Of a stretch of 64,000 bases of DNA, positions 460 through 60,258 are shown one piece after another; the first letter of the stretch is position 1, and every line of letters starts with the position of its first letter. Position numbers and translations under genes: made by a program. Under the pieces are notes generated by a model. That model saw only the letters and a program-made list of their open reading frames with translations, was not told where the DNA came from and did no database searches. Source of the DNA: Eledone cirrhosa (Eukaryota); NCBI GenBank assembly GCA_964016885.1, contig OZ024742.1, positions 256,990,001 through 257,054,000 on the forward strand, given 5' to 3'.

Positions 460-675
460 GGCGGCCTACGTAGTAAATCGTATCATCGTGAGATCCGCTA
501 AGGTATTTTTTGTTTGCAGTTGTTTAAAATTGCCATTTATGGAAATGTTTTATTGTTAACTGTATATAAGTGCAGATACATTGTTTTCTGAAAAGGACAC
601 TCAAAAAGATTGGGTCCTTGAGCCCAAAATTTAAACATTTATAATTATCAAACAAAAATGTATTTGAAAAAAACA

Positions 676-2598
676 TGGATGAATCACAATCACACCTTCC
701 TCACAAACTAACACCTCACACCGACACCACCATTGTAAATATTACTACGTTTGCCAACACTAAAAATATAAGCAGTAGAAATATTTTAAATTTGTCTTAG
801 GCAGACATTCATTTCCCGCCATTGCCAATGACTGCGGGTGTTAAAGACGCTACCTCCACCACCACCACAGCGACAACAGAAACAAAAGAAAAAATAAATT
901 AACTCGTGATATCGAAATTAATTCAACCAAAATGAACTCTTCCACACCGAACACCAGTGACGCCACCACCACCACAACTGAAACTAAAATTAACAATAAC
1001 AAAAATAACGATAACAACAACAGCAACAATGAAATTAAGAAAACCACCCTGAGTTTTGCCAGATTAGCAAAACAGTGCGAATCAATTCAGGCAACTCAGG
1101 AGGAATTAGAAGAAGCGAAAAAAATGGAAAAGAAAGATGGGTACAGGGTCAGCCCCCCCCCCCCCCCCCATAAACACACACACCTAATAAAATGGAGCAG
1201 CGGCGCCTATGCACCGTCTCTTATCGAACGATTAACATAAAATCGAGCCAAGTGGAACATGCATCCGAGTCCCATATCCAAAAAGCTTTGGGATATTTGT
1301 GGGCAAAAAAAAACCCCACATCAGACGTTTGGATAAGTATGGAACCGTGGACGTGTTCTTTGAAACACCACAGGAGGCTAGAGAACACTCCATGGCCCCA
1401 TTAAGCAGTGACGACTTCACACTCGTCCCAAGCTATTGTGGCCAGAGACTCGTAAAGATCAGGGTGACCCACGTACCACCGGCCATCGAAATTCCGTGGC
1501 TAATAGCTGCCATCCTGGCAGGCATCGAAGCCAACACCATCATAGTCGAAATAGCGAAAGAAAAGCAGCAGAACTGGACCGGATCTGGGATGGAGCTCTA
1601 GATCCAAGCGGAGCAAAAAAGCATTAAGGAGATCTCAGAGGTAATAGACCTCACTGGCGGGAGCCACCTCACGGTAATCGTCGAGGGCAGAAGGCCTAGG
1701 TGTGTCGTTTGTGGTGAAGGAACCCACCGAAGGGCTTTCTGGCCTCAGGCTAAAAGGTTGAGGCCACCTCTCTTACCCACCCCAAGGACTCAACCATCAA
1801 CACCACCAGCAGCAGAGATGGCAGCAACAACAGTAACAGTAACAACAGAAGCACATGTAACAGCAACAACCCCAGCAACAGTAGCAAAACCAACACCACC
1901 TCCACCCAACGCGCCAGAACTAGCACCAGCGCCTACACCATCCACCACGCAACAAACAAAACCAACGCCTGTGGAGGATTTTCCACTCCCCGGCCAATCA
2001 CATCTGGAGACAGATTGTGACGACGAGGAGTGGGAAACGGTATAAGGAAAAAAGAAAAAAAGAAACCAAAAAAAGATAAATTCTCTTCCCTCCGCCTCCA
2101 AAAACAAAATACAAAGGGAAACAAATAAACTATCAAACAAAAAAGTTAGGACAGATATGCCACCATCCACACCAGCATCACCAACCTCATCACCACAAAC
2201 ACCAACACCATCACCATCATTAAACCCAACACCACAATAGTCACCAAAAAGCGAAACAGAAACAAACACACAACAAACGCAAACAAAACAACCAAAACGA
2301 TACACACTACTCAGCATTAAATTTGAACAACAACCAATTATTACACTACATCCAACACAACACCAGCATCACAGAAAAAGACTACACAAGGACCCAAAAG
2401 TTCACACTACCTCCACACATACAAATCACTCGCATCACACAGAAAACGTACACGACACTAAAACAAAAATTCCCCAAAGACATCGGAGACTTCCGACAAA
2501 CACTCTTCAGGAGGATTTATAAGGACATCCTTCCTGAGGAGGCCACAAGCAGTGAAAAGGATGGAAAAACCGTCCTTCCCTTACGAGAAGTAAGGTAA
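676..2598 (+). pseudogene. Tx1-like ORF1 (gag-like CCHC knuckle, Pro/Thr-rich and basic linker), frameshifted
   Basis: Fragments 932..1240, 1299..1601, 1758..2045 and 2323..2598 are colinear with copy 3 ORF1 (RCVVCGEGTHLRAFC). Confidence 0.85.
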
Positions 2599-2632
2599 GT
2601 GGTCTTTCCCATCTTTTCCACTCCTTTTCAAC

Positions 2633-5600
2633 AGGACCTCACTCAGAATAGGCAGCATAAATACGTGTGGCTTGTGGTCGTCATGGAAGCAGGGCCACCT
2701 GCTCAACGACCTCAGGTCACTAAACATAGATGTAGTGGCCATCAGCGAGACCAGAATTTCAGAAGTACGGGCCTTCGCACCGATCTTCGGCGGAGACGAT
2801 GTGTACGCATCTCCCAGCCGTCCTGGATCGGGGGGAGGAGATGCTGTGCTTTTTCGGAGAGGTTTGGATCTCGCCATACGGGCCATCTTCCTGGACACAG
2901 AAGGTAAGTTGATGGTGCTAGACGTGACAAGATAGTCAGCTACACGGACCACAAATTCGTGATCTGTGTGCTTGACTTAGATAGGCTTCATAGACGAGGA
3001 CACGGCTACTGGAAGCTAAACGCGTCCTTACCAGCGCGCAAGACCTACAGAGACCGGTTTAGCGAATTAGTTAAGCGGGCGTTGACGGGGGCCTTCGTCG
3101 ACAACAAGTGGCGTTTGCTCTGAAAAGAGCAATCAGAATAGAGTCCATTAGGTTTAGTAAGGCTTTAGCAATAGAAAAAATAGATCAGAGGGAGAATTTT
3201 TTAGAAAATTAGATGAGGCGCTTAGCAAAGGCATCGCGACCGACGTACTTGCGGCGAAATTGGCCCTTGACCAATTCTTCAATGCAAAGCACGAAGGCTG
3301 CGTTGTCAGAGATAGGGTGCGTGCTCTCTGACACGAAGGGACGAAAGTCGTTCAATGGGCCCGAGTGGCGGAGGCGCGTCATGGAAACAAAGCCACGATT
3401 CGGTCTTTGGTGGACCAAGACGAACGCATGCTACTCGATCCCGGGCAAATGTGGGAAGCTTTTAAGCGACACTTCGCACAGCTGTTCGGGGGCAGGGGCG
3501 AGCCGGATCGAGGGATGGACGTTAGTGTCTACCTCGACGGACTGCGGCGGCTCTCGGTCACTGACGCGGAGTGTTGCGAAACGACGATAACAACCGCTGA
3601 AGTACGGTTTGGATGGTCTGCCCTATGAACTTTACGTACAGATGCCAGACTTGTTCGGAGCCCTCTTGGCGGACATCTACTGCAAACAGCTGGCAACAGA
3701 ACAGGAGAATCCCCAGCTCTGTGAGCCGAGGAGGTGTGGCGCTGCTGAGAAAGGATCCGAAAAAGGGGAAAACAGATAATGTCAGGCCCATATCTCTGCT
3801 AAACACAGAGTTCAAGAGGCCAAGGTGCTAGCAAAGAGGTTGGCGCTTGTCGTTGGTGGTCCCATGGGACAGGCGCAGACAAGCGCTATTCCCGACAGAT
3901 AAATTTACGACAACCTCCACTTCATGCGATACATGGCAGATAGGGTAAAAAGGGAACCTGGCTCGGGTGGGTCCTTAATCAATTTATATCAGTCGAAAGC
4001 TTTCGATAGGGTCGACCACCGTTACATAGCGGCAGTCCTGAGGACGGCTGGCTTTGGGCCCGTCTTCAGAGGCTGGATCGCGCCATGCACAGCGACATTT
4101 GCTCTGTAGTGAGAGTGAACGGTCACCTTTCGGAACCGTTCAACATCATGCGCTCGGTCAGCCAAGAATGTACCCTCTCGTCCCTCGTGTACGTATTGAC
4201 TCTCGAGCCATTACTGCACAAACTGGAGACGTTGAGGGGGGTCCCGCGTGAACTAGGATGCGGAAGATCCGTGTCAGCATATGCGGACGATGTCACCGTA
4301 GTGGTGTCGAACGCCAATCACATAGAAGCGATAGGCACTACACTAAGAGAATAGGAAGCGGTGACAGGAGCAATGATCAACCAGGAAAAGTCAGTGGGCT
4401 TGCAGCTCGGCACCTGGAGAGGCAGGTCCATGCCGTCCAACAGCGTCGTCGGGGGCTGGACGGACGGACCGATAAAATGCTAGGGGTGTGGTTCTGTCCG
4501 GACCTCCAGACGGATAAAAACTGAGACGAGGTGACGAGCAGGGTGGCTTCTCTCACCCAGAAATGGGCGGAGAGGAAGCTATCCCTGAAAGTTCGAGCGG
4601 AGGTGGCTAACGCATACATCGCGTCCGTCATCTACTACCGCCTGACCGCCGTACCTTGTTCTAATCCCCGCCTGACTGTGCTGGAGCGTTTGCTCTTTCG
4701 CTTTTTGTGGAAGGGACGCGCTCCGATGGTCAGGCGGTCCATCTGCTGTCAACACCCGCTACGTGGAGGGCTGGGCCTGCCGTGGCTGATGATGCGCAGA
4801 CACGCGCTCAGGATACGACATCTCCACCTCTTCCTCAACGGTGATCAGGTGTTGTCGCCCTTTTGCGAGACACGTCTTTCCCCAGCTCGTCTCCTTGACG
4901 GAGCTGCACACCTGGGTCAAGCGAAGACCGAGAGGGAGCGCTTGGAGACTGGAATGTCTTCAGGCGCTCACAGCCCTCGACAAATCTGGCAAGGTGATCG
5001 GTGGAAACTCCACCTTGGCGTTCTATAGAGGATTAGTGGAGGGGAAGAGCGACGACGTACTTGGGGAAACTCTAGGCGTCGACGAAAATCAACTAGCCAA
5101 TCTCTTCGGAAGAACTTTCGGGCCGGGGCCTATGGACAACTTCCAGAAATCCCTGGCCTGGCAGTGCTATCGAGGAGCTTTGCCAGATGGGGATAAACTC
5201 TACAGGCATGGAAGTGCCGTCACCGGGCATGTCGGAGATGCGCGCAGGGTGACGAAACCATCTGCACGCACTTGTCCAGTCACTGAGCATTGCTGACTTG
5301 TGGTTTTATGTCGAACAACTGCTGTCACGTGTAGGACAGATCCGGCTATCAGCTGAGTCCATCGTGAGGATTGCCCCGCCCTCTTCCTTTAGCCGGGAAG
5401 GGCAGGCAGTTTTTATCTGTCTGGTGGCCATGTCGAAAGAGATAATATGGTGAAAACGTTTGAAAGGGCTGAAGACGAGCACTTACCTCTTCGGTGATGC
5501 CCTGATTAACTTTTTCAAATTTCATTTGAAAAGGAAAATCAGGGTAGAGAGGGAAGTGCTCTCTTCCCAGCATTTTGTTGAAAGATGGGTGAGAGAAGCA

Positions 5601-5645
5601 AGTATGGCCCGAGTGAATGGGCCTATTCTGAGTATGTGTCTGTAA
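2633..5645 (+). pseudogene. Tx1-like ORF2 (APE endonuclease, reverse transcriptase, C-terminal Zn motif), disrupted, with ~360-bp deletion in APE
   Basis: DVVAISETR, RPISLLNTEFK, QSKAFDRVDH, SAYADDVTV, KLSLKVRAEVAN. Junction GACGTGAC|AAGATAG at ~2928 skips 60550-60909 of copy 3. Confidence 0.9.
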
Positions 5646-5890
5646 ATTAAAGATGGAAAACTGGGAGAGGGCACTTGCCCTGGTGGTCAGGGTCACTGTG
5701 GCCATTTAATGGGCTTTCTCCACGAATGTCCCTCGGAAGTCTACCCCCTATTGGGGAATTTTTCATTGTTATTTTTTAATTACATCCTCTTTTTTTTTAC
5801 ACGCAGAAATGCCCATTTATACTGTCCTGTATTGTCCTGTACTGTCCTTAATGTCTACTTTATGTAAACCCTTGTGGTTAATAAAGAAAG

Positions 5891-5891
<1 letters not shown>

Positions 5892-5949
<58 letters not shown>
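5892..5949. repeat. (ATT)n microsatellite, 3' flank of Tx1-like copy 1
   Basis: Direct reading. Confidence 0.95.
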
Positions 5950-6148
5950 GAAAATGAACCACACATTATATAACAACTCGACTATCAAAGGTTTCAGGAC
6001 CCTAGATAATAATAACATACGTACAATTTGCTCACCAGATGAAAAGTTATCTTACATTTTCATCTGATGGGTGAACTGGACGTATTGTCTAGGTTCCAGA
6101 AACCTTTGGTAATGAAGTAGTTATATATTGTGTGGTTCACTTTCTAAT
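5947..6148. mobile_element. ~200-bp imperfect palindrome of two head-to-head PLE pLTR fragments, each with a degenerate hammerhead
   Basis: AGAAAATGAACCACACA...TGTGTGGTTCACTTTCT arms. The + arm reads TTCAT-CTGATGG...GAAA-CCTTTGG-TA-ATGAA (6058-6117); the - arm has CTGGTGA. Confidence 0.65.
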
Positions 6149-6568
6149 TAAATAACTTTGTATTATACATAGTGTACACTTTTTTCCTCTGTTCATTCTT
6201 CGGAAATTCTTAAATCTCACACACACATACACACACACATATAGATGATAATTGTTGTAAACCAAATTTCACTGTTGTACAGCAAGTACTATTCGGTTTG
6301 ATTCAGGCTATTTGGAAGCATTCAGTGGATCGAAATTTGAAATCAAACATTAAGTCCAGATTGAAAATCGACCGAAGGCACCGGCGATATATATTAGAAA
6401 TACGATATATATATATATATATATATATGAAAAGTGTAATTTTCTACACAAAACGTAGGTTATAGAGAAAATTGAGGTTGGTAATGGCACATGGAATATA
6501 TAAGAGACAGAATACTTTTTTGTGAAAAAACATAATTTTATAAGGTAAGGAAATAATAAAGGGTATAC

Positions 6569-6617
6569 AAAATGACCGGTTTCGATGGCGCTGCAAAAGC
6601 CATCTTTTCAAATGTTG
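6569..6617 (-). ncRNA. Minimal type I hammerhead ribozyme (U3-A8 variant) in 3' pLTR
   Basis: Sense: TTGAAAA-GATGGC ttttgcagc GCCATC-GAAA-CCGG-TC; palindromic stem III ACCGGT. Confidence 0.8.
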
Positions 6618-6929
6618 ATTAATATTAAGAAAAATTAATAATACGAAGAGTTAAAATTTGAGACTTGAAAATTCAAGTATAAAATTCATTGTGGGATTTC
6701 ATAGCAGTTTTCATCTAGGTAGCAACAACAGGTTGACTGCTGTGTCCCTTTCTGGTAGTGAATGAGAAGTTATTTGGGGTGTGTGTTATTTTATAAAGGT
6801 CAGATTTAGCAATCACCAACTGGCCAGCTGCTGGTCAGTGAGGGGGTGGAAGCAATATACATACACATATCTTCCTGTGATGGGTAGGAGAGTGGAGCGT
6901 GATAGAAAGGGATTTAGTGCACTTACACC

Positions 6930-7076
6930 TATATATACACACATACCTTCATCCACACATACATACATATACATATACATATATATATATACATATATAT
7001 ACACATATACACACATACATACACGCACACATATACATATACATAGACACATACACACACACATATATATACACAT

Positions 7077-7129
<53 letters not shown>

Positions 7130-7198
7130 TATATATACATACACATACATCCAGATACACACATACATACACACACACATACACACACATATATATAT

Positions 7199-7254
<56 letters not shown>

Positions 7255-7592
7255 CCACACATACATACACACACATATATATATACACACACACACATAT
7301 ATATATATACATACACACATACAAACATACACACACCCACACATATATATACACACATACACACACATATATATACACACACACACACACACGCATATAT
7401 ATATATATATACACATACGCATACATCCAGATACCCACATACATACACACACACACACACACGCACACACAATACATACATCCACATGCACACACATACA
7501 CACACACACACATATACACATACATACACCCACACACAGAGAAATGGCCTTCAAATATATATATATATATATATACATACAGACACATATAT
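6930..7592. repeat. Mixed (CA)/(TA) microsatellite inside the PLE 3' untranslated region
   Basis: Direct reading; lies between ORF stop 7875 and the pLTR. Confidence 0.95.
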
Positions 7593-7874
7593 TTTTTCCA
7601 TAATATAAGAAGTTGGGGCAGTGAAATTAAAATAGAAGTCATTCTGATCACATTGAGTTCTTCATGTAGATTGGGCCCCGCAACCGACAGTGGTGAATTC
7701 TGTGTGCGCATATATATATAGATATATGTGTGTGCACGTGCAGGGTTTAACATGGATGTGTTGGTCACACAAAGGCATGGTCTGTCAATGAATAAACCTG
7801 ATTCTACAGAATTGGTCTCTGGTCTTTAATAGTAGTGATTCCGTGCGTATGTGTGTTTATATTTTATGACAATT

Positions 7875-10310
7875 CTATTGGGGTGATAACCCGTTTAGTT
7901 TTGGTTTAAATTTGTTGAGGAATAGATTTTCTTTGTTTATTCTTTGTTGCTGTGTGAACGAATCTGAGCACTTGTAGAAGGGGAAGATTTTAAAGTTGGG
8001 TAGTGTCATTCCTGCGCAGTTCGCAATATGGCTGCTCAAGGGGATTTTTCTTGTGTTAGCGTCCCGGATTTGTTGGCGGTGGATGGTCATTCTTTTGCGT
8101 AATGAGGTGCCCGTCTGTCCTATGTAGTTGTGTTTGCACCCACCGCAAGTTATTGCGTAAATCAAGTTCTCCGAGTTGCAGGTGAAATTGTTTTTTACTG
8201 TAAATGTTTGGCCATCTTTGAATGTAAATGTTTGTCCTTCAGTGAGGTAGAGGCACATTCCACAGTTTGTTCTACCACATTTGGTAACTGTAGGGTTGAG
8301 GATTGGTTTGGGTATATTTGGTCCAGTGAGAATGCGTTTAAGTGATTTGGGTTGTCTTTTACTTTTAAGGATCTTGTGTGTTTCAAGAATAGACTTCATT
8401 TTTACATCTTTAAGTAGGATGGGGAGGTTTTTGTGTAGGTGATCAAACATTTCGGTATTTCTGGGGTTGAATGTGGATACATATGGAAGGGTGTTGAGTG
8501 TAGTTTTCTGTTTTGGATTGTTAAGTTGATGGGGATTTAGGTATTTTGCCCTGTCTATTCCATTGTTGATTATTTCAAGTGGAAAGGCTCTTAAGATAAG
8601 TGTGTCTTTTAGTTCCTTTAGTCTTTGCTCCCGTTTAGGTGGATCTGATACTATGGTACATATACGTTTGGCCAAATTGTAAGGAATGTTAAGTTTTGTA
8701 TGTTTTGGGTGACTTGATGTGAAAAAGAGGTATTGCTTGGAATCTGTGGGTTTATAGAATATATCTGTATCTAATTTCCCGTCTATTACAGATATGAGAA
8801 TATCCAAGAAGGCTAATTCCTTAGGATTGGATTCCATTGTGAATTGTATGTTATTATCTATGTTGTTTATCATGTTTTTAAACGTAGTAAGTGAGTTCAT
8901 GTCTTCTTGCCATAGGATAAAGCAGTCGTCTAGATATCTTTTCCAATTGGCTTTGAGGTGTGTGTGGAAAGAGTCTCCAAATAAGAGAAGGGACTGACTG
9001 TTTATTTGTTGTTCATGGAATCCCATGACTAGGTCGGCATATGTGGGTGCTACTTTCGTGCCCATTGCCGTACCTGATACTTGTCTGTATGTTGAACCAT
9101 TGAATGTGAAGTAGTTATTTTGTAGGATAAAGCGGAGTCCGTCAGTGATAAAATCTGTGTTGATGCGTGTCGGTATTTCTGATGGGTGTGTGTTAAGCCA
9201 GTATTGGACTGCTGTTATTCCATAGTTGTGAGGTATGTTTGTGTAGAGGTTTATTACGTCAAAGGAGACAATAATTGTATTTGCACTTACTGTTTTAGGG
9301 AGGTGTTTCAGCATGTCAAGGTCATCTCGTATGTAGCTCTGTATATGTTGTAGAAAGGGTTTCAGTAGGATGTCCAGAAAGTTGCTAAGTCTGTGGGTTT
9401 CACATGTAGGGCCTGCTATAATTGGCCTGAGTTTTAGGTCTTCTGGTGGTGTTAGTTCAATGTAATTGTTGGTTGAGGTATCACATGCATCGTTTATGGG
9501 TTTACATTTGTGAAGTTTCGGTAAGCCGTAAAAAGAGCTTGTATTGCATTTGAAGTGGCTTATATAGTTAAACTCTTTTGTGGTTAAGCTGTTGCGGTAT
9601 TTATTCAGTAAGGTCAAAAGGTTCCCCATTGTTTTGGTGTGTTTGTAGTTTTCTGTTTTTTCATAGTATGTGTTGTTTTCTAAAATGTTAAGTGCGAGGG
9701 TCCTATAGTAGTCCGTATTCATAATGACAACAGTACTGCCTTTATCGGCTTCTTTGATAGTTATCTCAGGGTTGTTTCTAAGTGTAAATAATTCTTCCCA
9801 TTCGTGTGTAGATAGGTTTGATTTCGTGTGTTTATTTGTAATTTTTTCATAGGGAAAGTTGGTGATGTGTTCGCAGTACGTGTCCAGTGCTTTATTTCTT
9901 CCCTTTTGTGGGCAGAAATTGCTTTTATTTCTAACCAGTGATTCGTCTTCAGTGTTGGTGTCGTTGTGGAAGAATTCCGTTAGTCGCAGCTTTCGGCAGT
10001 ATTCCATGATGTCATCCTTCATTTCGGGGAAGTTTGGTTTACGTGGTGTAGGTGTAAATTTCAGGCCCTTACTTAAAATGTTGATTTGTGTGTTGGTTAG
10101 AGGTGTCTTTGAGAGGTTGATTATTTTTGGTTTCTCCTGAGGGGGGGGCCATCGAGTATCCTGGTATTTCAGGCTTTTCCCTAAAAAAGGAATGTAGTTT
10201 TGTGTGTGATTATATTTTGTTGGTCTGTTGCGTGTGGGTCTGTAGCTTGTTGTTTCATGAGGGTGAATGTGATGGTGGGGGTGGTATGTGTTGTGGTTGT
10301 TGATGAGCAA
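7875..10310 (-). CDS. PLE reverse transcriptase + CxxxxCxxC linker + GIY-YIG endonuclease (uninterrupted 811 codons, no obvious own ATG before the conserved region)
   Basis: IINLS..LSKGLKFTPTP, EADKGSTVV, YGLPKLHK, LRPII, FDVINLYTNIP, GTAMGTKVAP, RYLDDCF, FLDI, CGRTNCGMC, LIYAITCGGCKHNYIGQTG..RKRMTIHR. Confidence 0.95.
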   Translation of the reverse strand: MLINNHNTYHPHHHIHPHETTSYRPTRNRPTKYNHTQNYIPFLGKSLKYQDTRWPPPQEKPKIINLSKTPLTNTQINILSKGLKFTPTPRKPNFPEMKDDIMEYCRKLRLTEFFHNDTNTEDESLVRNKSNFCPQKGRNKALDTYCEHITNFPYEKITNKHTKSNLSTHEWEELFTLRNNPEITIKEADKGSTVVIMNTDYYRTLALNILENNTYYEKTENYKHTKTMGNLLTLLNKYRNSLTTKEFNYISHFKCNTSSFYGLPKLHKCKPINDACDTSTNNYIELTPPEDLKLRPIIAGPTCETHRLSNFLDILLKPFLQHIQSYIRDDLDMLKHLPKTVSANTIIVSFDVINLYTNIPHNYGITAVQYWLNTHPSEIPTRINTDFITDGLRFILQNNYFTFNGSTYRQVSGTAMGTKVAPTYADLVMGFHEQQINSQSLLLFGDSFHTHLKANWKRYLDDCFILWQEDMNSLTTFKNMINNIDNNIQFTMESNPKELAFLDILISVIDGKLDTDIFYKPTDSKQYLFFTSSHPKHTKLNIPYNLAKRICTIVSDPPKREQRLKELKDTLILRAFPLEIINNGIDRAKYLNPHQLNNPKQKTTLNTLPYVSTFNPRNTEMFDHLHKNLPILLKDVKMKSILETHKILKSKRQPKSLKRILTGPNIPKPILNPTVTKCGRTNCGMCLYLTEGQTFTFKDGQTFTVKNNFTCNSENLIYAITCGGCKHNYIGQTGTSLRKRMTIHRQQIRDANTRKIPLSSHIANCAGMTLPNFKIFPFYKCSDSFTQQQRINKENLFLNKFKPKLNGLSPQ

Positions 10311-11389
10311 GGGTTCTGTTGTTGGTTCATGTGGTCTGGGTGCGTTATTTCTGTGGTACAGAGTGTTGAGGCTGGGGGGTTGTCTTTTGTTGGATTGAGG
10401 GTGATGTCTGGTGTGGTTGTGGGTAAGTTCTGTTGTGATTTCAAGTGGTCTGGGTGGATTTCTTCTGAGGAATGTGGTGTGTGTGTGTTGTGAGTTGGAT
10501 CTATGTTATTTCGTCGTTGGTTTATGTAGGGGGCATTTCTACGGAAACCTGTGTTGTGGTGGTTGGGTGTGTTTCTTTTGGTGTAGTTGGCCGTATTTGG
10601 TTTGTGTTGGTGGGGGATGTGCCTGTGGTTAGTGTGTGTTGGGTTTGGTGGTGTAAATGTGTCTGTTGTAGTTCTTGTTATGTTCAAATGCTTTATAAAG
10701 GGGTTACCTGTTTGGTGCGTCCTTTTAAAGTCTTTTTCATATTTGAGGAACCAGTTTTCGGATTTTTCCCACCGTTTAAGGGAAATAGTTTCTGCATTCT
10801 CGCAGTCCTGTTTCCACGATTTGATTAAATTTTGTAGGGTTGTTCCCTCGGCCTTTTTAGTGCATTCTTCCTCCATATTTTTATCAGTATCCTTATACTC
10901 TTGCTCGTTTGAGGTGGCCCTTAATTTTAGGAGTTCTATTTCCATGTTTATCCTGTTGAGTGACATTTGTTCACGGAGTTTTCTTTCTGGTTCAGGTTCG
11001 TTTGTAATATGCTTTATTTGGAATTTACGTGGTAAAACTATCGGTGTTGAGTTAATCCATTTTTGGTAAATTCCAGCTTTGTTGAGGTTTTTTATCATAT
11101 TCCAGAAAGTGAATTTTCTGGTTTTTAGATGTTTTTTCCAGAGGTGTCCCATTTGGTTTTTGATATGGAGCAATGTCGTTTGTTCTGTGTTGGTATTCAT
11201 AAGTTTTTCGATGGAGTTGCATACGTTTTGAACGTTTAAATAAATTTGGTTGTCAGTCGGTGTGGTGGTTTGGGGTATATCCTGTTTTTTTGTCAGAATG
11301 GTGAGTTTTCCATTTATCTCTTTTAGGATTTTCAGGATTTCCTCATTGATATTGGAGTTTGAAGTTGTGTTGTCTTGTTCCAGTGCCAT
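10181..11389 (-). CDS. PLE upstream ORF1 (402 aa; predicted coiled-coil N-half, H/N/T/P-rich C-half)
   Basis: Open 402 codons from an ATG just downstream of the pLTR. Heptad-like segments INEEILKILKEINGKLTIL and RINMEIELLKLR. Overlaps the RT ORF by 130 nt. Confidence 0.8.
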   Translation of the reverse strand: MALEQDNTTSNSNINEEILKILKEINGKLTILTKKQDIPQTTTPTDNQIYLNVQNVCNSIEKLMNTNTEQTTLLHIKNQMGHLWKKHLKTRKFTFWNMIKNLNKAGIYQKWINSTPIVLPRKFQIKHITNEPEPERKLREQMSLNRINMEIELLKLRATSNEQEYKDTDKNMEEECTKKAEGTTLQNLIKSWKQDCENAETISLKRWEKSENWFLKYEKDFKRTHQTGNPFIKHLNITRTTTDTFTPPNPTHTNHRHIPHQHKPNTANYTKRNTPNHHNTGFRRNAPYINQRRNNIDPTHNTHTPHSSEEIHPDHLKSQQNLPTTTPDITLNPTKDNPPASTLCTTEITHPDHMNQQQNPCSSTTTTHTTPTITFTLMKQQATDPHATDQQNIITHKTTFLF

Positions 11390-11849
11390 TTTCCGGATTT
11401 GCGTAGGTTAGTATATATGAAAAGTGTAATTTTCTACACAAAACGAAGGTTATAGAGAAAATTGAGGTTGGTAATGGCACATGGAATATATAAGAGACAG
11501 AATACTTTTTTGTGAAAAAACATAATTTTATAAGGTAAGGAAATAATAAAGGGTATAAAAATCCCTTTCTATCACGCTCCACTCTCCTACCCATCACAGG
11601 AAGCTATGTGTATGTATATTGCTTCCACCCCCTCACTGACCAGCAGCTGGCCAGTTGGTGATTGCTAAATCTGACGTTTATAAAATAACCCACACCCCAA
11701 ATAACTTCTCATTCACTACCAGAAAGGGACACAGCAGTCAACCTGTTGTTGCTACCTAGATGAAAACTGCTATGAAATCCCACAATGAATTTTATACTTG
11801 AATTTTCAAGTCTCAAATTTTAACTCTTCGTATTTTTCTTAATATTAAT

Positions 11850-11898
11850 CAACATTTGAAAAGATGGCTTTTGCAGACCCATCGAAACCGGTCATTTT
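11850..11898 (+). ncRNA. Hammerhead ribozyme in inverted pLTR
   Basis: TTGAAAA-GATGG...CCATC-GAAA-CCGG-TC-ATTTT. Confidence 0.78.
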
Positions 11899-12161
11899 TT
11901 ATACCCTTTATTATTTCCTTACCTTATAAAATTATGTTTTTTCACAAAAAAGTATTCTGTCTCTTATATATTCCATGTGCCATTACCAACCTCAATTTTC
12001 TCTCTCTCTCTCTATATATATATATAAATTTATTTATTTATTTTTTAAAATAACAGATTAACGTTTAAGCAAAGAAATGCTGCTTTCACCCTTAACGGCA
12101 TCTTCTTTTATGTATCCTTATCGAGCCCTCTTTGGATTTTAGTCTTCACAGTTATTATTAT

Positions 12162-12526
<365 letters not shown>

Positions 12527-14423: not shown

Positions 14424-15575
14424 GTATAATAAACAATACAATATAATCACCTCATTACCAGAGGTTTCCCGAATAAGACGAATACGAAAGAAACGTCCTC
14501 ATTCGTTCGTCGGACGAGACAATATAAAACATAATGAAATATTTGGAAAGTCCCCTCAAGAAATGCAAAAAAAAAATATATATATATAAATAAAAGTAAT
14601 GCAATAGACAAAATATAGTTAGGTGTGTGTATATGTATGTATATACACTCACAGATTTACATATGTATGTATGTACAAATGCGTGTGTATGGTGAAAATG
14701 TGTGCGTAAATATATGTATGAGGGCAAGTATAACTGTGTGTATGTAACCACAAATACGGATATAATATGAGTGTCTGGTTGACACATATACAGAAATCAG
14801 GGTATTAGATACAATTATATGAATATGAAGGCACGCGTATAAACACACACACACACGCGTACACTTATATGCGGAAGAAAAAGATGTAAGGGAGTGTTTA
14901 TAGTTAAAAGAAAGTGTCATTCTCAATATATTTACAAAAATGGAACAATATATTAGAAAGAAAAAAAATTTAAATGAAAGAGAGAGTAGTCAATTAACAC
15001 TAGAGAAGAGAAAAGAAAAGAAAAGAAAAGAAAAGAAAACAAAAAAGGTACACGCGTACATACACATATATCTATAAGAAACATATATCTATAAAAAAAA
15101 TAAAAATATATATATATACACGCAATACGTGCAGACAAACGAGTATGCAAGCGTACATACACACACAGGATGCACATATATATATATACATACATATCGC
15201 TTACACGCACACACATAAAAATAAGAATGTAAAAAAACATAGATGTAAAAAACACAGATATAAAAACACACATACATACACATATATATATACACGCACG
15301 CACGCGCACATACGGAGGCGTTCGTGTACATATACAGAAAGTATACACACATAAAGACGCTCAGACAAATAGATACAGAGTGTAAAAACAGCCTTATGAA
15401 TAAGTGAGTACAAATATAAAAATATAAAATTGGCTGCGAAATAAAAGAAAATATCTGGGGTGGAAAACGCAAGTGACCTGTATAATCAGGTAGTAAAGAA
15501 AATAGTGAAGTAAAATGTGGAAAGTGAAGATATTAGGTAAGTGACTTACCAAATATTTCACTATGTTTTATATTG

Positions 15576-15645
15576 CCTCGTCCGACGAACGAATGAGGAC
15601 GTTTCTTTCGTATTCGTCTTATTCGGGAAACCTCTGGTAATGAGG
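15576..15645 (+). ncRNA. Hammerhead-like motif (core CCGACGA); mirror copy at 14450-14519 on - strand
   Basis: Stem I CCTCGT/ATGAGG, stem II CGAATGA-GACG/CGTC-TTATTCG, GAAA, stem III ACC tct GGT, triplet GUA. Confidence 0.7.
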
Positions 15646-15869
15646 TAATTATATTGTATTGTTTATTATACATTAAATTTTGCTCTGGTTCTTACATAGA
15701 GCACTCTTCACTCCTATGACTTTTTCAATTTTCAACGGAAACTTCAATACTTATACAGCTCCTAAGGAAATGATCCCAGCATATTCTACATTTTTATGAG
15801 ATTGGCACCTTCCAGCCCTTTTAAAGTCGACCACTCTTCAGTCAATAGGATTTTAAACCAATACTGAAC

Positions 15870-18629: not shown

Positions 18630-19338
18630 ATTTGTCTTAAAATAAGTCTTTTAAGACAAATATGTGTGTGTGTGTGTGTGTGTAATAAAGAGGTTCATTG
18701 TTGTGATAATGGTCAGTAGGGATGTGTGTGTGAATTGCAGTCATGTTGAAAAATCAACAGTTCAGGTGTCTATTAAGACAATTATGTGTGTGTGTGTGAG
18801 TGTGTGTGTGTGTGTGTATATATATGTCTTGGTGTATGTTAGTGTACTGACCATTATCACAACAATGAACCTCTTTACTACACACACACACACACATATT
18901 TGTCTTAAAAGACTTATTTTTCAGTGACTTCTCAATCAGGCGAAAAAGGGCACTCTTCGACAAACCTACATTTGACGCTAAATCAATTTTTAACAGTCAC
19001 GTGACCTCTACCGACCAAACAAAATTGTTTTGACTACAAGAATTTTTGCAACACGAATTGGCGCGAAACTTATAGTACTCATTCACGTGACATTCAACAA
19101 CCAACCAAATCTTAATACCTTTGGAGCCATTTTTTTCACATAAAACAGGTAGAATTTCCAAAACTGATCAGATTAGAGCAAACATCACGAGCGCTCTATC
19201 TCAAAATTATTTTTGAAAAGCATTAGAAATGCGCAACCGGTAAAAATTTAAAACTAAAACTGAATACTAACCAATACTTACTATTCATTTTTCTTAATCC
19301 TAATTAAACTATTTTTCACTGGGAAAAAATTGTCAGCA
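18630..19338 (+). mobile_element. Non-autonomous pLTR-type element with internal inverted repeat (18643-18718/18845-18920), E2F/E-box module and degenerate HHR (19209-19247)
   Basis: TTGAAAA-GCAT tagaa ATGC-GCAA-CCGG-TA-AAAAT; ends in (TA)n. Confidence 0.6.
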
Positions 19339-20626: not shown

Positions 20627-21262
20627 GGGACTAAAAAATAATATTAGAATATTACAAAAGTGAGTCATAAAAAAAGAAACATTAATAAAACTCATATCTG
20701 TCTATTGCATTGGAATCACGTATCTGTTGCTAAGCGATAAACTCGATACATCCTCTGATATCTTAAAAGCGAAAAAGCTGCGTACGTTATAAGGGGACAC
20801 AACATATTTAGGTGAGGAGGAAGTTCGATTCCCGTTTTTTAGGATACCTTTATGTATCTTGAGCAAGTGACACTTTCACTATTCTTGGGAGTAAATTTAG
20901 GTTCAGAAAGACTGTTTGAAGCCTGTAAGATGGTTTGAAACACAAATCAAATGTTCACGTTTGTTACAAAGGTTTCACGTTGATACTTATGTTCGAATTA
21001 CATGCATTTTAACCAAATAAATATGTGCTACTTCATAAACGAAATAGGCATGGAAGAATTAAAACAATTGCAAATATGTCATGAGCTCTATTGACTGTTA
21101 GTTATGTCATAGATATAACCTTTTGTGGCCGACATAATCAGAAACGTCGTGATTTATTTGTGTGTGATATGTGCTTCCATCTTAAGGGTATATGTCCCCG
21201 ATTCTTCTATAGTGGTTATGTTTTTCAGTAACCTTTCAAAAAGCAATATATATATATATATA

Positions 21263-21329
<67 letters not shown>

Positions 21330-21330
<1 letters not shown>

Positions 21331-21514
21331 ACGAAGGAAGTGTGGTAAGGAACCAGGTGGACCATAACGCACCAGAGTACTCAATATTTAGAGTAGTAGA
21401 GTGAGTAATAGGAAAATGTTTAACCCCGACGGCAGACCTCAACCCGTTTCGACGGTTATTTCTGAAAATAGCCGTCGAAACGGCCTGAGCTCCGCAGTCG
21501 GAGTTAAACATTTT

Positions 21515-21517
<3 letters not shown>
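21330..21517 (-). mobile_element. Short TA-flanked fold-back element (palindrome 21409-21518); second copy at 37727-37910
   Basis: GTGGTAAGGAACCAG(G/A)TGGACCATAACGCACCAGAGTACTCAATA is shared by both copies; arms contain GAAA-CGG..CCG-TC. Confidence 0.8.
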
Positions 21518-21565
<48 letters not shown>

Positions 21566-24189
21566 ATTTTTGAAAGGTTACTGAAAAACATAGTCACTAT
21601 AATAGAATCGGGGACATAGCCCCTTAAGATGGAAGAACATATTGCAGACAAATAAATCACGACGTTAAAAATGGCAAATACAATCAGAACCTTCGAAGAT
21701 GAACTGGCGCAACATTTATTGTACTTATTCATAAACCAACCAATTATTTGGAAAATGAGGGTTTAATAATAGAGATGTCCCAAACGTAAGATTGAGGTGG
21801 AGGGTTTGTGTTTCTGTTGTGGTTTGTCTCGGTACGTGTTCAAAAGTTCTTTGTCTTATGCGGAAAGAGTGGCTCAAATTGCTGGGGTGGGGTGGGGGGG
21901 GCTTAAAGGAATTGGTTGGTTGATGACTATCACGAGAATAAGTACAATAAATTTTGCGCCATGTTAGAAGGTTCAAGTTAGAAGGTTCTTATTGTATCAC
22001 GATTGGGCATAAAATAAAGGTGACACAAAAGGATGGTTTGTCGGAAGGGTTTGTGCCTAACAAAGGATAATGGTCATCAGAGTGGCAGAGATAGTTCTGG
22101 TTTAGAGAGTATGGCTGATCTCATGCTGAAGTGTCAAAATTCAGTCTTTCTATTGAAATAAGTTGAATGTTGGCCTAATGCATTTGTTCCGACTCATTCT
22201 GCTATGAGTACAAATCCCTCAGTCTTCAACATTCCCCTTCAGATTTTGAGGTCAATAAATATGCTAACAATTGATTAATGGGTTCTTCTACCTCTGTATC
22301 ACTTTCTCACTTATGGTTTCTTTTAATTTTTCTCTTTTTTTCTTTTTATATTTCTCTCTTTCTTTCTTTCCCTCACACACCGAGTAATTCCGCGTCTGTA
22401 AAAGGACAGTCTTCAGTTAAATACGCAAGACTCGCTTAATATAACGATAGCGCTCCTACGACCCCATTGAGAGCTAAATAGGTATGGAAGCAATTATATT
22501 TATGTCCAATAGCAGGAATATATATTCCTAGAAATATTATAAATTTGATAATGTGTTCCAAACATTGTCATGTCAGTCATTACCGCAAAATCAAACAGAA
22601 AGAGATAATTTAAACGGTTTATACATATATTCAGTATTAACCAATATTTGCCTGTCATTATCAATCTCAATTCCCTCATAAATCAATAAATTCCAGTTAT
22701 TTCTAGGAACCATTACCTTTAAAATACACTTTAATGAAAAAACAATAAGATATTATTATAAAATGTGAATTCAATATTGTTTTCGAAACATTTACAGGCA
22801 TAACTATCTGATATATTTCGATTAGAATGATTACTCCCGTATTATACATAGCTCGATTACCCTACATCTAAAGACATATCTATTTCTTTAATATTTTATC
22901 ACTTGGTAATTAATCACGCATTTTAGGGAAAATCAATTTTAAGGAAATATCGATTACATTGATCTCATTATTTCAGGGGTATGCTATTTGATCATTGTTA
23001 CCTCGTAGTCCAGAAAACAGCCAAAATAATTACAGCTAGATATTCAATCCTGGCTCTAATGACTCTGATAATTCGCCTCCTCTTCTGTGGAAAATGTATC
23101 GAAATGACTTACAACAATTTTGAGGATGATCGTTCCAGTTGTTAGATCAACAGAACAAACATATGAAATTAACATGAAAATTGCTAAGAATTCCACAGAC
23201 ACGTGTATCTTTAACTTCATTCTCTAGGATATTCCGTCTGAATAAGAGATGCGGTCAATCTATCACGCTTCCAAACAGTTTCTATCCACCAAATGTCACA
23301 GTATAACTATTGTAAATTTTGCTAGATTATGATGTGAAGCTGTGAGATACAATCCAAGACCTAATGATTGCGAAATGAATGTCAACTATTTTGCTATCCT
23401 GCGTCATTCTCTCTATATATAGAGAACTACTGAAACTCACAGTTAAAATGCTCTATGGATTACATTTGCTCGTTAATCGTGTCATGTGACAAATTCAATG
23501 CCCGATTATTATTCAATTCAAAGTTGACAGTAATAATCGGAACTTTTCAAATCAATGCTTATTTATTAACTTTTGTATCACCTTTTTTATTATTGCCGTC
23601 ATCATAGTTGTCATTAATGTTATTGTTATTGTTACTGTAAATAATATCATGTTTATACAGCTTTCATCATAAGTAAATTGTTATTTCTTTTCGAACCTGA
23701 CCTCAACGCACTAAGCAAAAGTTAGCATGTCTTCACTCTATTCAATAATTTCGGATGAATAAGGAAACTACCTTCCTTCAGAGACAATACACGAATATAA
23801 ATTACAAAAATGGCTTATGTCAAACATTTTCATGGAATGAGATAATTATTTTATTTAATATTAATTTTTTGGTATTAATGCTTTTTTTTTTTTTTTCGCT
23901 TTGGATTTAAAGTAGGGTTATTTGTGTAGGGTTATCATGTGATCCTAGTTAATACGTAAGGTTGGGAATTCGAATGAACGGTGCATTATGTCCTTGACCA
24001 AGCCACTTTATATCACGTTGCTGCAGTCCACTAAGGTGGCAATAATTAGTCGTAACAATGTGTGTTTTACTATGTATTCTTATGTTTCAAAATGTGTAAA
24101 AGAGTTTAGGCTATCACTGAAAACAAGCAAACATATATACGCACGCCCACCCATACACACACACTCACAATCACACACACATAATTATG

Positions 24190-24234
<45 letters not shown>

Positions 24235-24238
<4 letters not shown>

Positions 24239-25640
24239 GGAAAAAAGATGAAATGGAAAATGCAACTGGAGTCTTTTTTTAAAAGAATATATATATCTAT
24301 TTGGTTCCTTTACCGGTTTCGCAGTTCTTCTGCTTTTCAAAAGTAGAGTTGAGATGGAGGGTCTATGGTTTTTCTCACATCTGGATGGTCTTTGAATGTT
24401 ACTTGTTTTATATGGAAAACAGTGGCTCGAAATGCCAGGTTTTAGAGAAGTAATTTGATTGGTTGTTGAATAAGTAAAATAAATTTCGCGCCATTTCGCG
24501 TTACAAAGTTCTTCAAACAAAGGAGGGGCTCAGGTTGTTTTTTTCATATATGAATGAAGTTTGGTTGGTTGATGCAGTGACGTGAATAAGCACATCAGCT
24601 TTCGCGCCAGTTTGTGTTTGAATTTCTTTTTACTTAAAAACCAAAAAAAGTGACTCACGAGGGCTTTTTTTTTATAAATGTAATTTGATTGGTTATAAAT
24701 GAAATTATGACTGTCACGTGAACAAGTACATTAAATTCACGCCCGTATTTTTGGAATTTTTTCATAGCCGTTTAGAGAATCTTGTGCTAATAATTGTCAA
24801 GAAAAAAGGGATGGACAGAGTTGTTCTGAGTATGACTGATGCGCTGAAATGTAATTTGATTTGTTATAAATGAAATTATGACTGTCACGTGAACAAGTTC
24901 ATTAAATTTCGCGCCCTTATTTTGGAATTTATTTTATAGCCTTTTAGAGAATTTTGTGCAAAAACAAAAGGTAATGGTCAAGAAAAATGGGATGGGGAGA
25001 ATAGTTCTGGTTCAGTGAATATGGCTGGTGCGCTGGGGTGTCAGAATTCAGATTTTCTATTGAAATAAAGAAAGTAGAGATATGTATGTTTATTTGTGTG
25101 CTTCTGTGTGTGTGTGTGTGTGTAGTAATATCATTCTATTAGTAGAAATGGGGGAGGGAGTTGTGTGTGTGTATGGGCGTTATGTGTGTGGGAGTATGGT
25201 TAGTATGTTAAGATGGAGAGAAAATATATATTTGTGTGTGTTTGTAGGAGAGTGATTCTATTAGTAGAAATTGGGGAGGAAATTGTGTGTGTGTGGGTGT
25301 TATGTGTGTGTGTATGAGTGTGTGGGAATATGGTTAGCATGTTAAGATGGAGAGAATATATATATTTGTGTGTGTGTGTGTGTGTATGAAAATGATTCCG
25401 TTAGTAGAAATGGGGGAGCGAGTGATGTGGGTGTGTATGGGTGGGTGTAGCATGTTAAGGTGTTAGAGTATTAGCGTATGTTAAGGTTTATTTAGTTCTG
25501 GTTTTTATTTTCTAAAGTAGGTGTTATGTGTGTGAGTATATATGTGTCTGTTTGGATGGTAAGCATGTTATGGTGTTGATATAATGTATATTAAACTATA
25601 TATATAATGTATATTAAACATAGTTTTGATTATTCTGTAA
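24235..25640 (-). mobile_element. Non-coding pLTR-type element with tandem internal modules; related fragment at 21760-22160
   Basis: HHR near the left TA array; 4 repeated ATTGG..CACGTG..TTTCGCGCC modules; sub-repeats at 25130-25420. Confidence 0.65.
24308..24343 (-). ncRNA. Minimal hammerhead ribozyme, U3-A8 variant, intact core
   Basis: CTT-TTGAAAA-GCAG aagaa CTGC-GAAA-CCGG-TA-AAG. Confidence 0.82.
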
Positions 25641-25886: not shown

Positions 25887-26431
25887 GCACGTATGGGTTT
25901 ACCGAACATTTATTATAATGCTCGGTTTGTTTCTAAAAAAACAAAAAGCCAGAATTAAGCCGTACAGTGTTTAGCAACCATCGTTGCCCACTAACAAAGG
26001 AACGCTGTACTAATTTCAAGCTTATTAGCTATCGTCAGCATCGTATACCTTCCTGTGAGATAATTGAACGTCTGAAAGTATATACTTTCCTCATGCATAT
26101 TAACGGCTGAGCAGCCTAATTTGCATATCGAGTGAATTAGTCGGCCGGGAGCACCGAAAACGATAAATGGAAAAAATGAAACGAAATGTATACGATGCTG
26201 ACGATAGCTTGAAACTAGTACATCGTTCCTTTGTCAGTGTTGAATGAAAGGGCAACGATGGTTGCTAAACACTGTATGGCTTAATTCGGGCTTATTGTTT
26301 GTTTACAAACAAACCGAGCATTATAATAAATGTTCGGTACACCCATACGTGCATATATATATGTGTGCATGTGTGTATATATATACATGCTACTGTACGT
26401 CTGTATACATATATGTATGTACCTATACATA

Positions 26432-26619: not shown

Positions 26620-27470
26620 GATATAACAAATCGGTTTTACTGATACTGGAACACAAAAAAACAACACTAATAATTCCAAGATATTGGAATAGCCAATATT
26701 GGAAGAATTAAAGTTTCTTCATCGAAAGGAGAAATCTGGGATTAAAGGGAGAATGTGTATGCATATCGTACATACCATGTGTTTGCCAGACCGCATGGTG
26801 AAAAGCATCCCTGAATTACTATATGAATATATCGCTCTCAATGTATTAGGACAACATGACGGGCTCATAATAATGCTGGAAATAGCAGCCAAAATATACT
26901 CAACAATGAAATAACAGTTCATAAATATTAGTTCACAACGTTAACTTCTTCTAATACCTATAAATCATCATAAAAGTTAAGTTTTAATAATAAATTATCT
27001 ACTCCGAGAAGTAATAAAATATATTAAACGTAAGCCAATATGTCAAGTCGGGGTATATATCCTAGCTAAAATCAGTGAATTTTAAATATACAGGTCCCCG
27101 ATCATAGATTTCTGGAAAGCACAAACCGACACTAATAATTAGGAGAAATTAGAATTACCAATATTGAAAAAATTACCTTCATCAGGAAAATAATTCTTTG
27201 GAATAACGTTGATAATATGAATACATATCATACGTACCTTGTAGCTGTCGGACCGCATAATGAACAAGGTGTTGCATAGCTAAATTACGATATGAATATA
27301 TTCCATTCATTGCGGAAGAATTAGCGTTGACATTTTAGTTCCAGAAACCATGGTCGGGAAACTGTATCAGTAAAACGGACTTATTTTTGACAGTCGAGCT
27401 TATATCCCTCCCAATTGTATATTGGCTTATGTTTAATATATTATTACATCTCTGAGTAGATAAGTTATTA
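26620..27470. mobile_element. Old pLTR-type element with diverged direct (26660-26830/27120-27300) and inverted (26985-27060/27398-27470) repeats; HHR at 27095-27188 (-)
   Basis: TTCC-TGATGA..GAAA-TC tat GA-TC-GGGG on - strand; half motif GAAACCATGGTC at ~27344. Confidence 0.5.
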
Positions 27471-27582
27471 ATATATCTTATCCTTTCATTAAAGATGGCT
27501 AATTAATCACCTCCTTTACACAGACGAGAAAACCATATATTTTCGCCTGTTTACAAGTCCAGCAGTCGCAAGTTTGGGAGGG

Positions 27583-37687: not shown

Positions 37688-37727
<40 letters not shown>

Positions 37728-37904
37728 CAAAGGAAATGTGGTAAGGAACCAGATGGACCATAACGCACCAGAGTACTCAATACTTAGAGTAGTAGAGTGG
37801 GCAATAGGAAACAGTATGAAGCCGACGGCAGAGCGCAAGCCTTTCCGAAATAGTCCAGAAATAGCCGTCGAAACGGGTTGAGCTCTGCCGTCGGGGTCAT
37901 ACAT

Positions 37905-38021
<117 letters not shown>

Positions 38022-38193
38022 ATCAGTTTATCCCGAGTTCAATTGGGGGTAACCACATTAAGTAAGGTAATCAATACATAGCAAAGTATAAATATTTAAA
38101 AGAGAAATTGCTTCTACAAGAGTAGAACTGTTTCATTCGGGAACAATCATCATGATTTCTCCCGAATGTAGCAGTTCTAGTCTTGTAGAAGGC

Positions 38194-38230
<37 letters not shown>

Positions 38231-38235
<5 letters not shown>

Positions 38236-38923
38236 GAAATTTCATTTCTCACTCTTAGTACGGCTGATACTTAAACATAGGTATGTATACGTACATACAT
38301 ATATTCATACAGCCGTACAGTAGTACACTGTACTGTTTAATGCAGGCTGTTTGTTTACAAACAAACTGAGCATTATAATAAATGTTCGGTAAAACCATAC
38401 GTACATATATATATATATATGTGTGCATGTATGTATGTATATACATACTACTGTACTGTAAGTCTGTATACATATATGTATGTACGAATACATACTTATA
38501 TTTAAGTATCAGCCGTACTAAGAGTGAGAAATGACATTTCATTTTTTCCACTTATCGTTTTCGGTAAACCCGGCCGACTAACTCACTTGATAAGCAAATT
38601 AGGCTGCTCAGCCGTTAATATGCATAAGGAAAGTATATACTTTCAAACGTTCAATCTACTGACAGGAAGCTATACGGTGCTGGTGACAGCTAATAAGCTA
38701 GAAACTAGTTCACCTTTCCTTTTTCAGTGTTGAACAAAAAGGCAACGATGGTTGCCGAAGACTGTACGGCTTAATGCGGACTGTTTGTTTACAAACAAAC
38801 TGAGCATTATAATAAATGTTCGGTAAACCCATACGTACATATAAATATATATGTGTGTGATTGTATGTATGTATATACATACTACCGTACGTCTGTATAC
38901 ATATATGCATGTACGTATACATA

Positions 38924-43528: not shown

Positions 43529-43560
<32 letters not shown>

Positions 43561-43704
43561 GAATGTATATATAGTGTATTTTGCAATACACTGTATGCTT
43601 AATTAAAAGCATTTCGAAGACATTATACTATTGTTTTAGCGTAGTGATAGTCTCACTTACTTTAATTTTCAGCAAACAGGGGAGATCAAACAGGAGGAGT
43701 AGTT

Positions 43705-43749
43705 AGCCTTGATAAGCATCAACAAATGCGAAACAGGACTCTGTCGGCT
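43705..43749 (+). ncRNA. Hammerhead ribozyme (U3-A8), fully paired
   Basis: AGCC-TTGATAA-GCAT caacaa ATGC-GAAA-CAG gact CTG-TC-GGCT. Confidence 0.88.
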
Positions 43750-44024
43750 TTATCTCCCCTGTTTGCTGAGAATTAATGTAAGTGAGACTATCACTACTCT
43801 AAAACAATAGCATAAGGTCTTCGAAATGCTTTTAATTAAGCATACAGTCTATTGCAAAATACACTATATATACATTCATATATATATAGCTATTTCAGAG
43901 CACCAATTCTAATTTTCAATTCATGCTTGACCGGCAAACGCTCTGTATAATCAGTTACTGATTATTTACTAGAATTCTATAAGAATCAAACATCCATGGT
44001 TTTCAGCAAACAGGAGGAGTAGTT

Positions 44025-44069
44025 AGCCTTGATAAGCATCAACAAATGCGAAACAGGGCTCTGTCGGCT
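44025..44069 (+). ncRNA. Hammerhead ribozyme (U3-A8), second tandem copy
   Basis: AGCC-TTGATAA-GCAT caacaa ATGC-GAAA-CAG ggct CTG-TC-GGCT. Confidence 0.88.
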
Positions 44070-44181
44070 TTATCTCCCCTGTTTGCGGAAAATTAAAGTA
44101 AGTGAGACTATCACTACTCTAAAACAATAGCATAACGTCTTCGAAATGCTTTTAATTAAGCATACAGTGTATTGCAAAATG

Positions 44182-44216
<35 letters not shown>

Positions 44217-47707: not shown

Positions 47708-47738
<31 letters not shown>

Positions 47739-48000
47739 GTTTTCAGTTTCTTGTGTAGTTGTGACTACATCAAGTTGTCGGTCAGCAGGTCGGTCATCTG
47801 CTGCTGTGACACTGGCAGTGGAAAGCTGTGAGTTTAGCTTCCCTTTTCTTTCTTTGAATGTTGGTGAAGATGCTTCAGCCATTTTATCAAAGTAGGAAAT
47901 TTTTCGAAAGATTTTTTTTCAAAAGATTTTTTTTCAACACAATTTCGCCTAAAGGCGTAGAATAATTTGAGAGACTGACCAGATTAAAATTTGACCTGGC
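44943..48000 (-). mobile_element. Tx1-like LINE family B with large internal deletion (ORF1 joined to RT C-half)
   Basis: ORF1 from 47882 with CYFCGARGHQRAVC knuckle; junction at ~46590 to VSAYDDDVTV; C-terminal CDEETVAHALVHC; ends AATAAAAAGAAAG. The 5' boundary is approximate. Confidence 0.85.
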
Positions 48001-50236: not shown

Positions 50237-50424
50237 CGTGTGTGTGTGTGTATATGTGTGTGTGCGTGTGTATATGTGTGTGTGTGCGTGCGTGTGTGTG
50301 TTTGCGCGCATGCACTCACACACACACTTACGCACACACACGTATATATATATAATAAAAAAATAGTAACATTAATGATATTAATAGTAAATATAACAGT
50401 GATAATAAATTTGCCATTAATAAT

Positions 50425-60224: not shown

Positions 60225-60258
60225 GTGGTCTTTCCCATCTTTTCCACTCCATTTCAAC

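Follow-up and report, generated by a model that had tools for sequence, protein, structure and literature searches.

The hammerhead motifs of Penelope-like elements (PLEs) have been proposed to process precursor RNA (Cervera and de la Pena, 2014, PMC4209133), and the same article, which notes the lack of in vivo evidence, also proposes circles and describes a U3-A8 core and a helix I of 2 bp as variants of PLE hammerheads. Circles have been shown for retrozymes (available part of PMC7229834). What hammerheads do in EN+ PLEs is described as unclear in the accessible sections of Craig et al. (PMC8557442). The 5′ junctions of R2 follow the cut of an HDV-like ribozyme and vary by small deletions, according to the accessible text of PMC3774820, and for PAc two-site internal priming on both strands has been shown (available part of PMC11167929). 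No report of PLE junctions at a hammerhead cut was found in the literature searched, supplements excepted; one of these, Fig. S2 of Frangieh et al., is a map of genomic ends and could affect the novelty.

The window analysed here, a stretch of 64,000 nt from Eledone cirrhosa (contig OZ024742.1), contains on its minus strand, at 6422-12003, a two-ORF PLE of the Neptune/Nematis type with an inverted 5′ pLTR (Table 1). The element, its architecture and its ribozyme type are all already known. As in EN+ PLEs, a GIY-YIG endonuclease that has two cysteines between its motifs GIY and YIG lies C-terminal to the RT, and the pLTRs, direct and inverted, are accompanied by a tail, with arm ends at +110 and +152 relative to the predicted ribozyme cut, a difference of 42 nt. 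The ORF2 protein contains the motifs DKG and YLDD, a C-x4-C-x2-C linker and a GIY-YIG with CxxC between GIY and YIG. Its RT domain matched RVT_1 with an E value of 1e-6 and 29.1 bits, just below the cut-off of 29.6, and its relatives carry PF00078 and PF01541. Among 7878 candidates 1174 were relatives of the RT-endonuclease protein, the best of them with 59% identity, and the linker cysteines C608, C613 and C616 are invariant across 29 aligned proteins. The linker has the form CX2-5CxxC between RT and EN, and by the linker definition in the available part of PMC8557442 the predicted protein assigns the element to the Neptune/Nematis group. ORF1 matched no Pfam family. An additional, upstream overlapping ORF lies near ORF1, and likewise in four related loci (L001, L002, L012 and L081).

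Table 1. Features of the PLE and its hammerhead motifs (window coordinates; signed positions are relative to the predicted cut).
Feature	Coordinates	Strand	Remarks
3′ pLTR	6422..6915	-	tail to +152, terminates in (TA)n; private changes vs 5′ copies
Hammerhead, 3′ pLTR	6567..6617	-	intact, core 6611-6605, predicted cut 6574/6573; copied through uncut
(CA/TA)n microsatellite array	6930..7720	.	between ORF2 and 3′ pLTR
Open RT-endonuclease frame	7875..10505	-	876 aa stop to stop; overlaps ORF1
ORF1	10181..11389	-	first ATG 11389 = +175 after predicted cut
Sense arm start	11412..11561	-	copy of pLTR +3..+152, without ribozyme core
Inversion junction	11559..11561	.	3-nt microhomology: sense arm +3..+5 / inner end (-335) of inverted arm
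Inverted 5′ pLTR	11559..12003	+	spans -335..+110
Hammerhead, inverted arm	11850..11900	+	U3-A8 core 11856-11862, 5-bp stem II, palindromic stem III, weak stem I; predicted cut 11893/11894

The 3′ pLTR (6915-6464, minus) and the inverted pLTR (11559-12003, plus) are 97% identical over 452 columns. The two 5′ arms overlap over 108 nt with 100% identity, and the sense arm start differs from the 3′ pLTR copy at 2 positions. The outer end of the inverted arm adjoins a (CT)n(TA)n tract, and its +110 end reappears as a loose end in 4 contigs of sequencing run X2. The outer ends at +110 and +152 agree with the two-start model of priming established for PAc. A TATA-like box at 11679 and an initiator-like TCATTC at 11709, 32 nt apart (11679..11714, plus strand), match the respective consensus and are taken here as a predicted promoter, the start of which would lie ~183 nt upstream of the cut.

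Several other repeats surround the element. A sequence of ~110 nt flanks it on both sides (6320-6428 and 12248-12386), inverted and each time adjoining (TA)n, possibly because a different family had earlier inserted twice into one and the same microsatellite. A broken LINE, in which fragments of an endonuclease and an RT are left, is present at 460-5891, 50418-56027 and 57960-63881 in three copies that are 87-92% identical, with a more distant copy at 45226-47918; judged from the translations, these are presumably Tx1/L1-like. Numerous short inverted-repeat elements, several of which adjoin (TA)n, were observed at 5938-6155, 14449-15646, 21143-21666, 25887-26352, 26972-27486 and 38087-38545, and no hammerhead core was found in them.

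Both pLTRs of the PLE contain a U3-A8 minimal hammerhead according to a descriptor of our own, and both motifs close with GAAAC-CG-GTC followed by ATTTT(G/T)TATACCC, so that the ending ...CCGGTC^ATTTT(G/T)TATACCC given in the initial annotation was recovered in each of them. The minimal type I core, (C/U)UGAN(G/A)A...GAAA...UH with a paired 3-8 position, is present in both. Helix II has 5-6 bp and is closed by G-C, helix III is a CCGG palindrome, and GUC is present. Helix I, which in minimal type I hammerheads usually has 4-6 bp (2 bp in D. virilis), here consists of 2 bp, a mismatch and 2 bp, and stems I and II together amount to +1.4 kcal/mol. As a search of Rfam at E<=1 returned 101 matches but no hammerhead, the call rests on the descriptor. 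The active shape did not appear in the monomer fold of the inverted copy or in a prediction for a two-copy dimer. In the minimum-energy fold of the inverted copy the core is instead paired with -4..+7 in a predicted 11-bp hairpin; this hairpin does not exceed shuffled sequences in stability (z -0.73), and the 3′ copy takes a different fold. Related loci were collected from metagenomes (80 loci from a scan of 19 of 64 parts) and genomes (7 loci). Among these 87 loci, 26 contained together 32 motifs by the descriptor, including close relatives with a hammerhead-like motif at the same place (L002, L005, L006, L008 and L081; by eye also L001 and L009). Judged by its sequence, the pLTR motif is a credible hammerhead homologue. 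Seven loci with a PLE reverse transcriptase (L081-L087) stand within bacterial MAG records, most likely as host contamination. Viral contigs yielded no RT relative among 187 pattern matches, and a single 19-mer match proved to be unrelated; none of 120 pattern loci in viral contigs had a structured hammerhead or an RT.

Comparison of the pLTRs confirmed that the sense arm upstream of ORF1 carries no ribozyme sequence and is fused directly to the inverted arm. The arm had been thought to start exactly at the predicted cut. Its ungapped homology, however, starts at 11561, which is +3, and an exact match would need a deletion of 1 nt. At the junction an A is followed by five T and ATACCC, in the inverted pLTR by six T and ATACCC, and in the 3′ pLTR by six nucleotides, with a private G, and ATACCC. 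As the arms share 3 nt, the possible ungapped start of the sense arm ranges from +3 to +6, i.e., 2-5 nt past the predicted cut. The microhomology comprises only these 3 nt (11559-11561) and not the 4-nt AAAT originally described. In the sequencing runs the form with six T is the family norm (A at 6568 in 772 of 784 X13 reads and in 82,760 of 83,079 depth in X2), the form with seven T was found in 12 of 785 reads, and the form with five T was absent among the 12 indel rows listed from runs matched to the 3′ pLTR. The lost T could stem from T slippage after insertion or from assembly. The full pLTRs that had served as reference do exist, but they are just two copies; as both come from the same insertion, the window gives one junction of this PLE family.

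It appears about evenly balanced whether, in this copy, the long cDNA ran off a 5′ end made by the predicted ribozyme, which is the explanation preferred here. A nick in the microsatellite on each DNA strand would have primed one cDNA per strand, at two internal start sites. Of these cDNAs, the short one would have halted at -335 and the long one would have copied ~5.1 kb up to the end of the RNA, after which 2-5 nt may have been lost and the two cDNA ends joined via the TTT/AAA microhomology. As the downstream hammerhead and the hammerhead of the inverted arm of the same insertion were copied intact, cutting by the ribozyme would have been partial; a re-ligated circle or a template jump might account for the intact hammerheads as well.

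The near-coincidence on which the initial annotation had built this reading is real. The breakpoint lies within 6 nt of the cut, and under a uniform null the chance that one ORF1-complete start falls in a 6-nt (10-nt) window is 0.012 (0.020), or 0.023 (0.039) for either of two ends, post hoc figures for a window around the cut that was chosen after seeing the data. Since the long arm had already run ~5.1 kb, a stop at this place would suggest an RNA end. The presumed promoter start is farther upstream than the cut, the core has the known U3-A8 covariation and a palindromic stem III, and ends just past a cut were also found in a second family of the window (+7) and in the loci L007 (+18) and L038 (+19). 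Against the reading stand the offset by one base, with a deletion unseen in the matched runs, the two intact hammerheads, the weak stem I and an active shape that was not predicted, as well as the upstream position of 10 of 15 measured ends and a flat depth across the cut in X2. The hammerhead of PAc was moreover dispensable in vitro, uncut RNA was the main template there, and no RNA-seq reads were found to end at the cut (PMC11167929). The typical published structure, too, is a full direct pLTR beside an inverted one (PMC3846280).

For the second U3-A8 hammerhead family of the window, at 43574-44184, the predicted cuts lie before 43746 and before 44066. The end of the inverted arm is at +7, or at +4 if one mismatch is allowed, and the sense arm begins at -59. 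In the copy at 43686-43775 the hammerhead is the minimum-energy fold, with a canonical three-way junction. The stretch 43550-44210 has a 4-bp helix III, a long extended helix I and two units 320 nt apart plus an inverted arm, and lies in (TA)n without an ORF; going by these predicted features, it is a retrozyme-like or non-autonomous PLE insertion. A third U3-A8 hammerhead-like motif was observed at 24236-24560 (minus), with a cut before 24310, and terminates in (TA)n. Its decayed relative at 19045-19244 (plus) is 69% identical and reads through the cut. Two palindromic inserts between (TA)n tracts (21330-21522 and 37726-37915; 83% identical) have unequal arms and a GAAAC half-motif, and resemble a MITE-like unit that arose from a PLE junction of the head-to-head type and has no catalytic core left.

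In the window and the 87 related loci 15 ends could be measured, 10 of which lie upstream of the respective cut. For the PLE of the window they are +3 and -335, and for the family at 43574-44184 +7 (inverted arm) and -59 (sense arm). The related loci gave +18 and -277 (L007, cut taken from L006), +19 and +428 (L038, cut from L047/L060), -110 (L047), -194 (L050), -122 and -106 (L027), -74 as a bound (L043), -6 (L059) and -219 (L060). In L007 (2076-2238), which is a relative bearing ORF1, the sense arm runs from +18 and the inverted piece comprises only -277..-178, short of the usual priming site. Left out of the tally were ends at contig edges (L002, L020, L053, L055, L071, L072 and L087), read-through copies (L019, L001, L002, L006, L008 and L009), second arms that could not be measured (L043, L050 and L059), the window motif at 24310, where no junction was seen, and the window palindromes at 21330 and 37726, which lack a core and are copies of one master. 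Within the pLTR range 2 of 14 ends fall at +1..+10 and 4 of 14 at +1..+20. Minus the discovery case, 1 of 13 ends falls at +1..+10 (P 0.26) and 3 of 13 at +1..+20 (P 0.018), where P refers to a crude uniform null with a window set afterwards and with families and hosts mixed. Under a geometric null for short arms, derived from the depths in X2, the probability per arm is 0.044 at +1..+10 and 0.091 at +1..+20. As short arms end near their start more often than the uniform null allows, the support from the family at 43574-44184 and from L038 is weakened. An enrichment of ends just past the cut across families is thus a hint, not a result, and ribozyme-set ends as a general rule are unsupported by the measured ends.

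Of 15 listed sequencing runs, 4 were matched to the intact 3′ pLTR, three of them consisting of short contigs and one of RAD-seq reads, probably from other individuals or species. The summed depth in X2 was flat across the cut (89,504 at 6554, 83,079 at 6568 and 87,923 at 6589); most short copies therefore continue across an intact ribozyme. Among the 18 loose ends listed, none lay at 6568-6574, and the listed joints, three skips, included no change of strand. As the same runs also missed the PLE's own junction, this lack of a hotspot is weak evidence and says little on rare full-length copies. In the RAD-seq run 84% of the matched reads continue into dissimilar sequence, accumulating at 6534 and 6636, which are probably restriction ends. 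Run X6 (organism C) had a summed depth at 6442-6680 of ~150,000-300,000 over the ribozyme region and of ~15,000 or less upstream, which suggests a highly amplified short derivative of this pLTR.

A second explanation, possible though given less than even credence, leaves the template uncut. The RT would have stopped or switched at the run of six U that forms the base of the predicted 11-bp hairpin (-4..+7), with TTT/AAA setting the join, and the nearness to the cut would result from sequence and structure at this place. This agrees with the minimum-energy fold of the inverted copy, but not with the lack of extra stability over shuffles and the different fold of the 3′ copy. Between the predicted start and ORF1, a distance of 367 nt, there are only 3 T-runs of at least 5, among them the run that follows the cut. 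The same 367 nt, however, offer 28 TTT starts, so that the microhomology alone does not single out the junction site. Ends on either side of the cut, such as those of L059, L007 and L038, and the excess of upstream ends speak for an uncut template, as does the use of uncut RNA as the main substrate in vitro (available part of PMC11167929), whereas the stop in the family at 43574-44184 does not appear to lie at the base of its long hairpin.

It is improbable that the RNA 5′ end was a transcription start. The hexamer TCATTT at 11892-11897, which we take to match the initiator consensus, has as its A the +1 base of the ribozyme, and the 445-nt pLTR contains just one other such hexamer. That one, however, lies 32 nt downstream of a TATA box and is to be preferred as a candidate, and L001, L002, L006, L008 and L009 lack the hexamer at the cut. 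The internal promoter of Penelope, with Inr/DPE, is LINE-like and has no TATA box (available part of PMC2377424), but in D. virilis the start precedes the hammerhead by ~120 nt, made up of 46 nt and an intron of 75 nt (available parts of PMC4209133 and PMC2377424). An intron around the ribozyme of the present element, for which an acceptor-like site exists near +134, was considered and dropped, as a convincing donor after the predicted start was not seen. That the junction formed after insertion, when the inverted arms recombined or suffered a deletion, or that it stems from the assembly, can be given very little credence, for although it was unseen in the 4 matched runs, which are probably of other individuals or species, ORF2 is open over 876 codons, the overlap of the 5′ arms is fully identical and the architecture is typical of fresh PLE insertions (available text of PMC3846280 and PMC8557442).

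The run-off from a ribozyme-cut RNA is thus plausible for this copy, and the value of the finding lies in the genome-wide junction count that it suggests. A wider claim, that in vivo a real fraction of PLE templates owes its 5′ end to hammerhead cleavage, so that inversion junctions pile up a few bases past the cut across families, is for the present doubtful. If true, such a pile-up would document PLE ribozyme activity in genomes for the first time and would point to cut monomers or re-ligated circles as templates, the upstream pLTR being rebuilt by a template jump or by read-through of the ligated junction. Should breakpoints cluster just past the cut, assembled genomes already contain the evidence, as for R2; should they not, the locus is an ordinary PLE insertion.

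Among described systems, the R2 HDV-like 5′ ribozyme (Eickbush et al., 2013, PMC3774820) shares the notion that the site of the cut can be read from genomic 5′ junctions, allowing for small deletions and microhomology that arises by chance. R2 is a different class of element with a different ribozyme, and according to the available part of that article the cut was assayed and many junctions were sequenced, whereas here one junction is set against a predicted cut. With the minimal type I hammerheads of PLEs, as presented in the accessible text of Cervera and de la Pena (PMC4209133), the putative motif shares the U3-A8 core, the G10.1-C11.1 pair and a short palindromic helix III. Its helix I is very short, as in Penelope from D. 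virilis, and, unlike those described there, has a central mismatch. The Neptune/Nematis EN+ PLEs share, in the available parts of Craig et al. (2021, PMC8557442) and Arkhipova et al. (2013, PMC3846280), the RT with C-terminal GIY-YIG, the CX2-5CxxC linker and the pLTRs, and also an inverted, 5′-truncated 5′ copy, a one-sided tail of ~40 nt, (TA)n targets and an optional ORF1. In contrast to them, the direct 5′ pLTR of the present element is neither full nor partial upstream of the ribozyme but starts just past the predicted cut, and a microsatellite array of 800 nt precedes the 3′ pLTR. PAc, a Poseidon element from Anolis, shares two adjacent internal RT starts that explain the tail, AT-rich targets and the extension of both strands (Frangieh et al., 2024, available part of PMC11167929). 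In PAc the cut lies inside the ORF, whereas the predicted cut of the present element lies 174 nt upstream of ORF1, so that a cut RNA would keep both ORFs.
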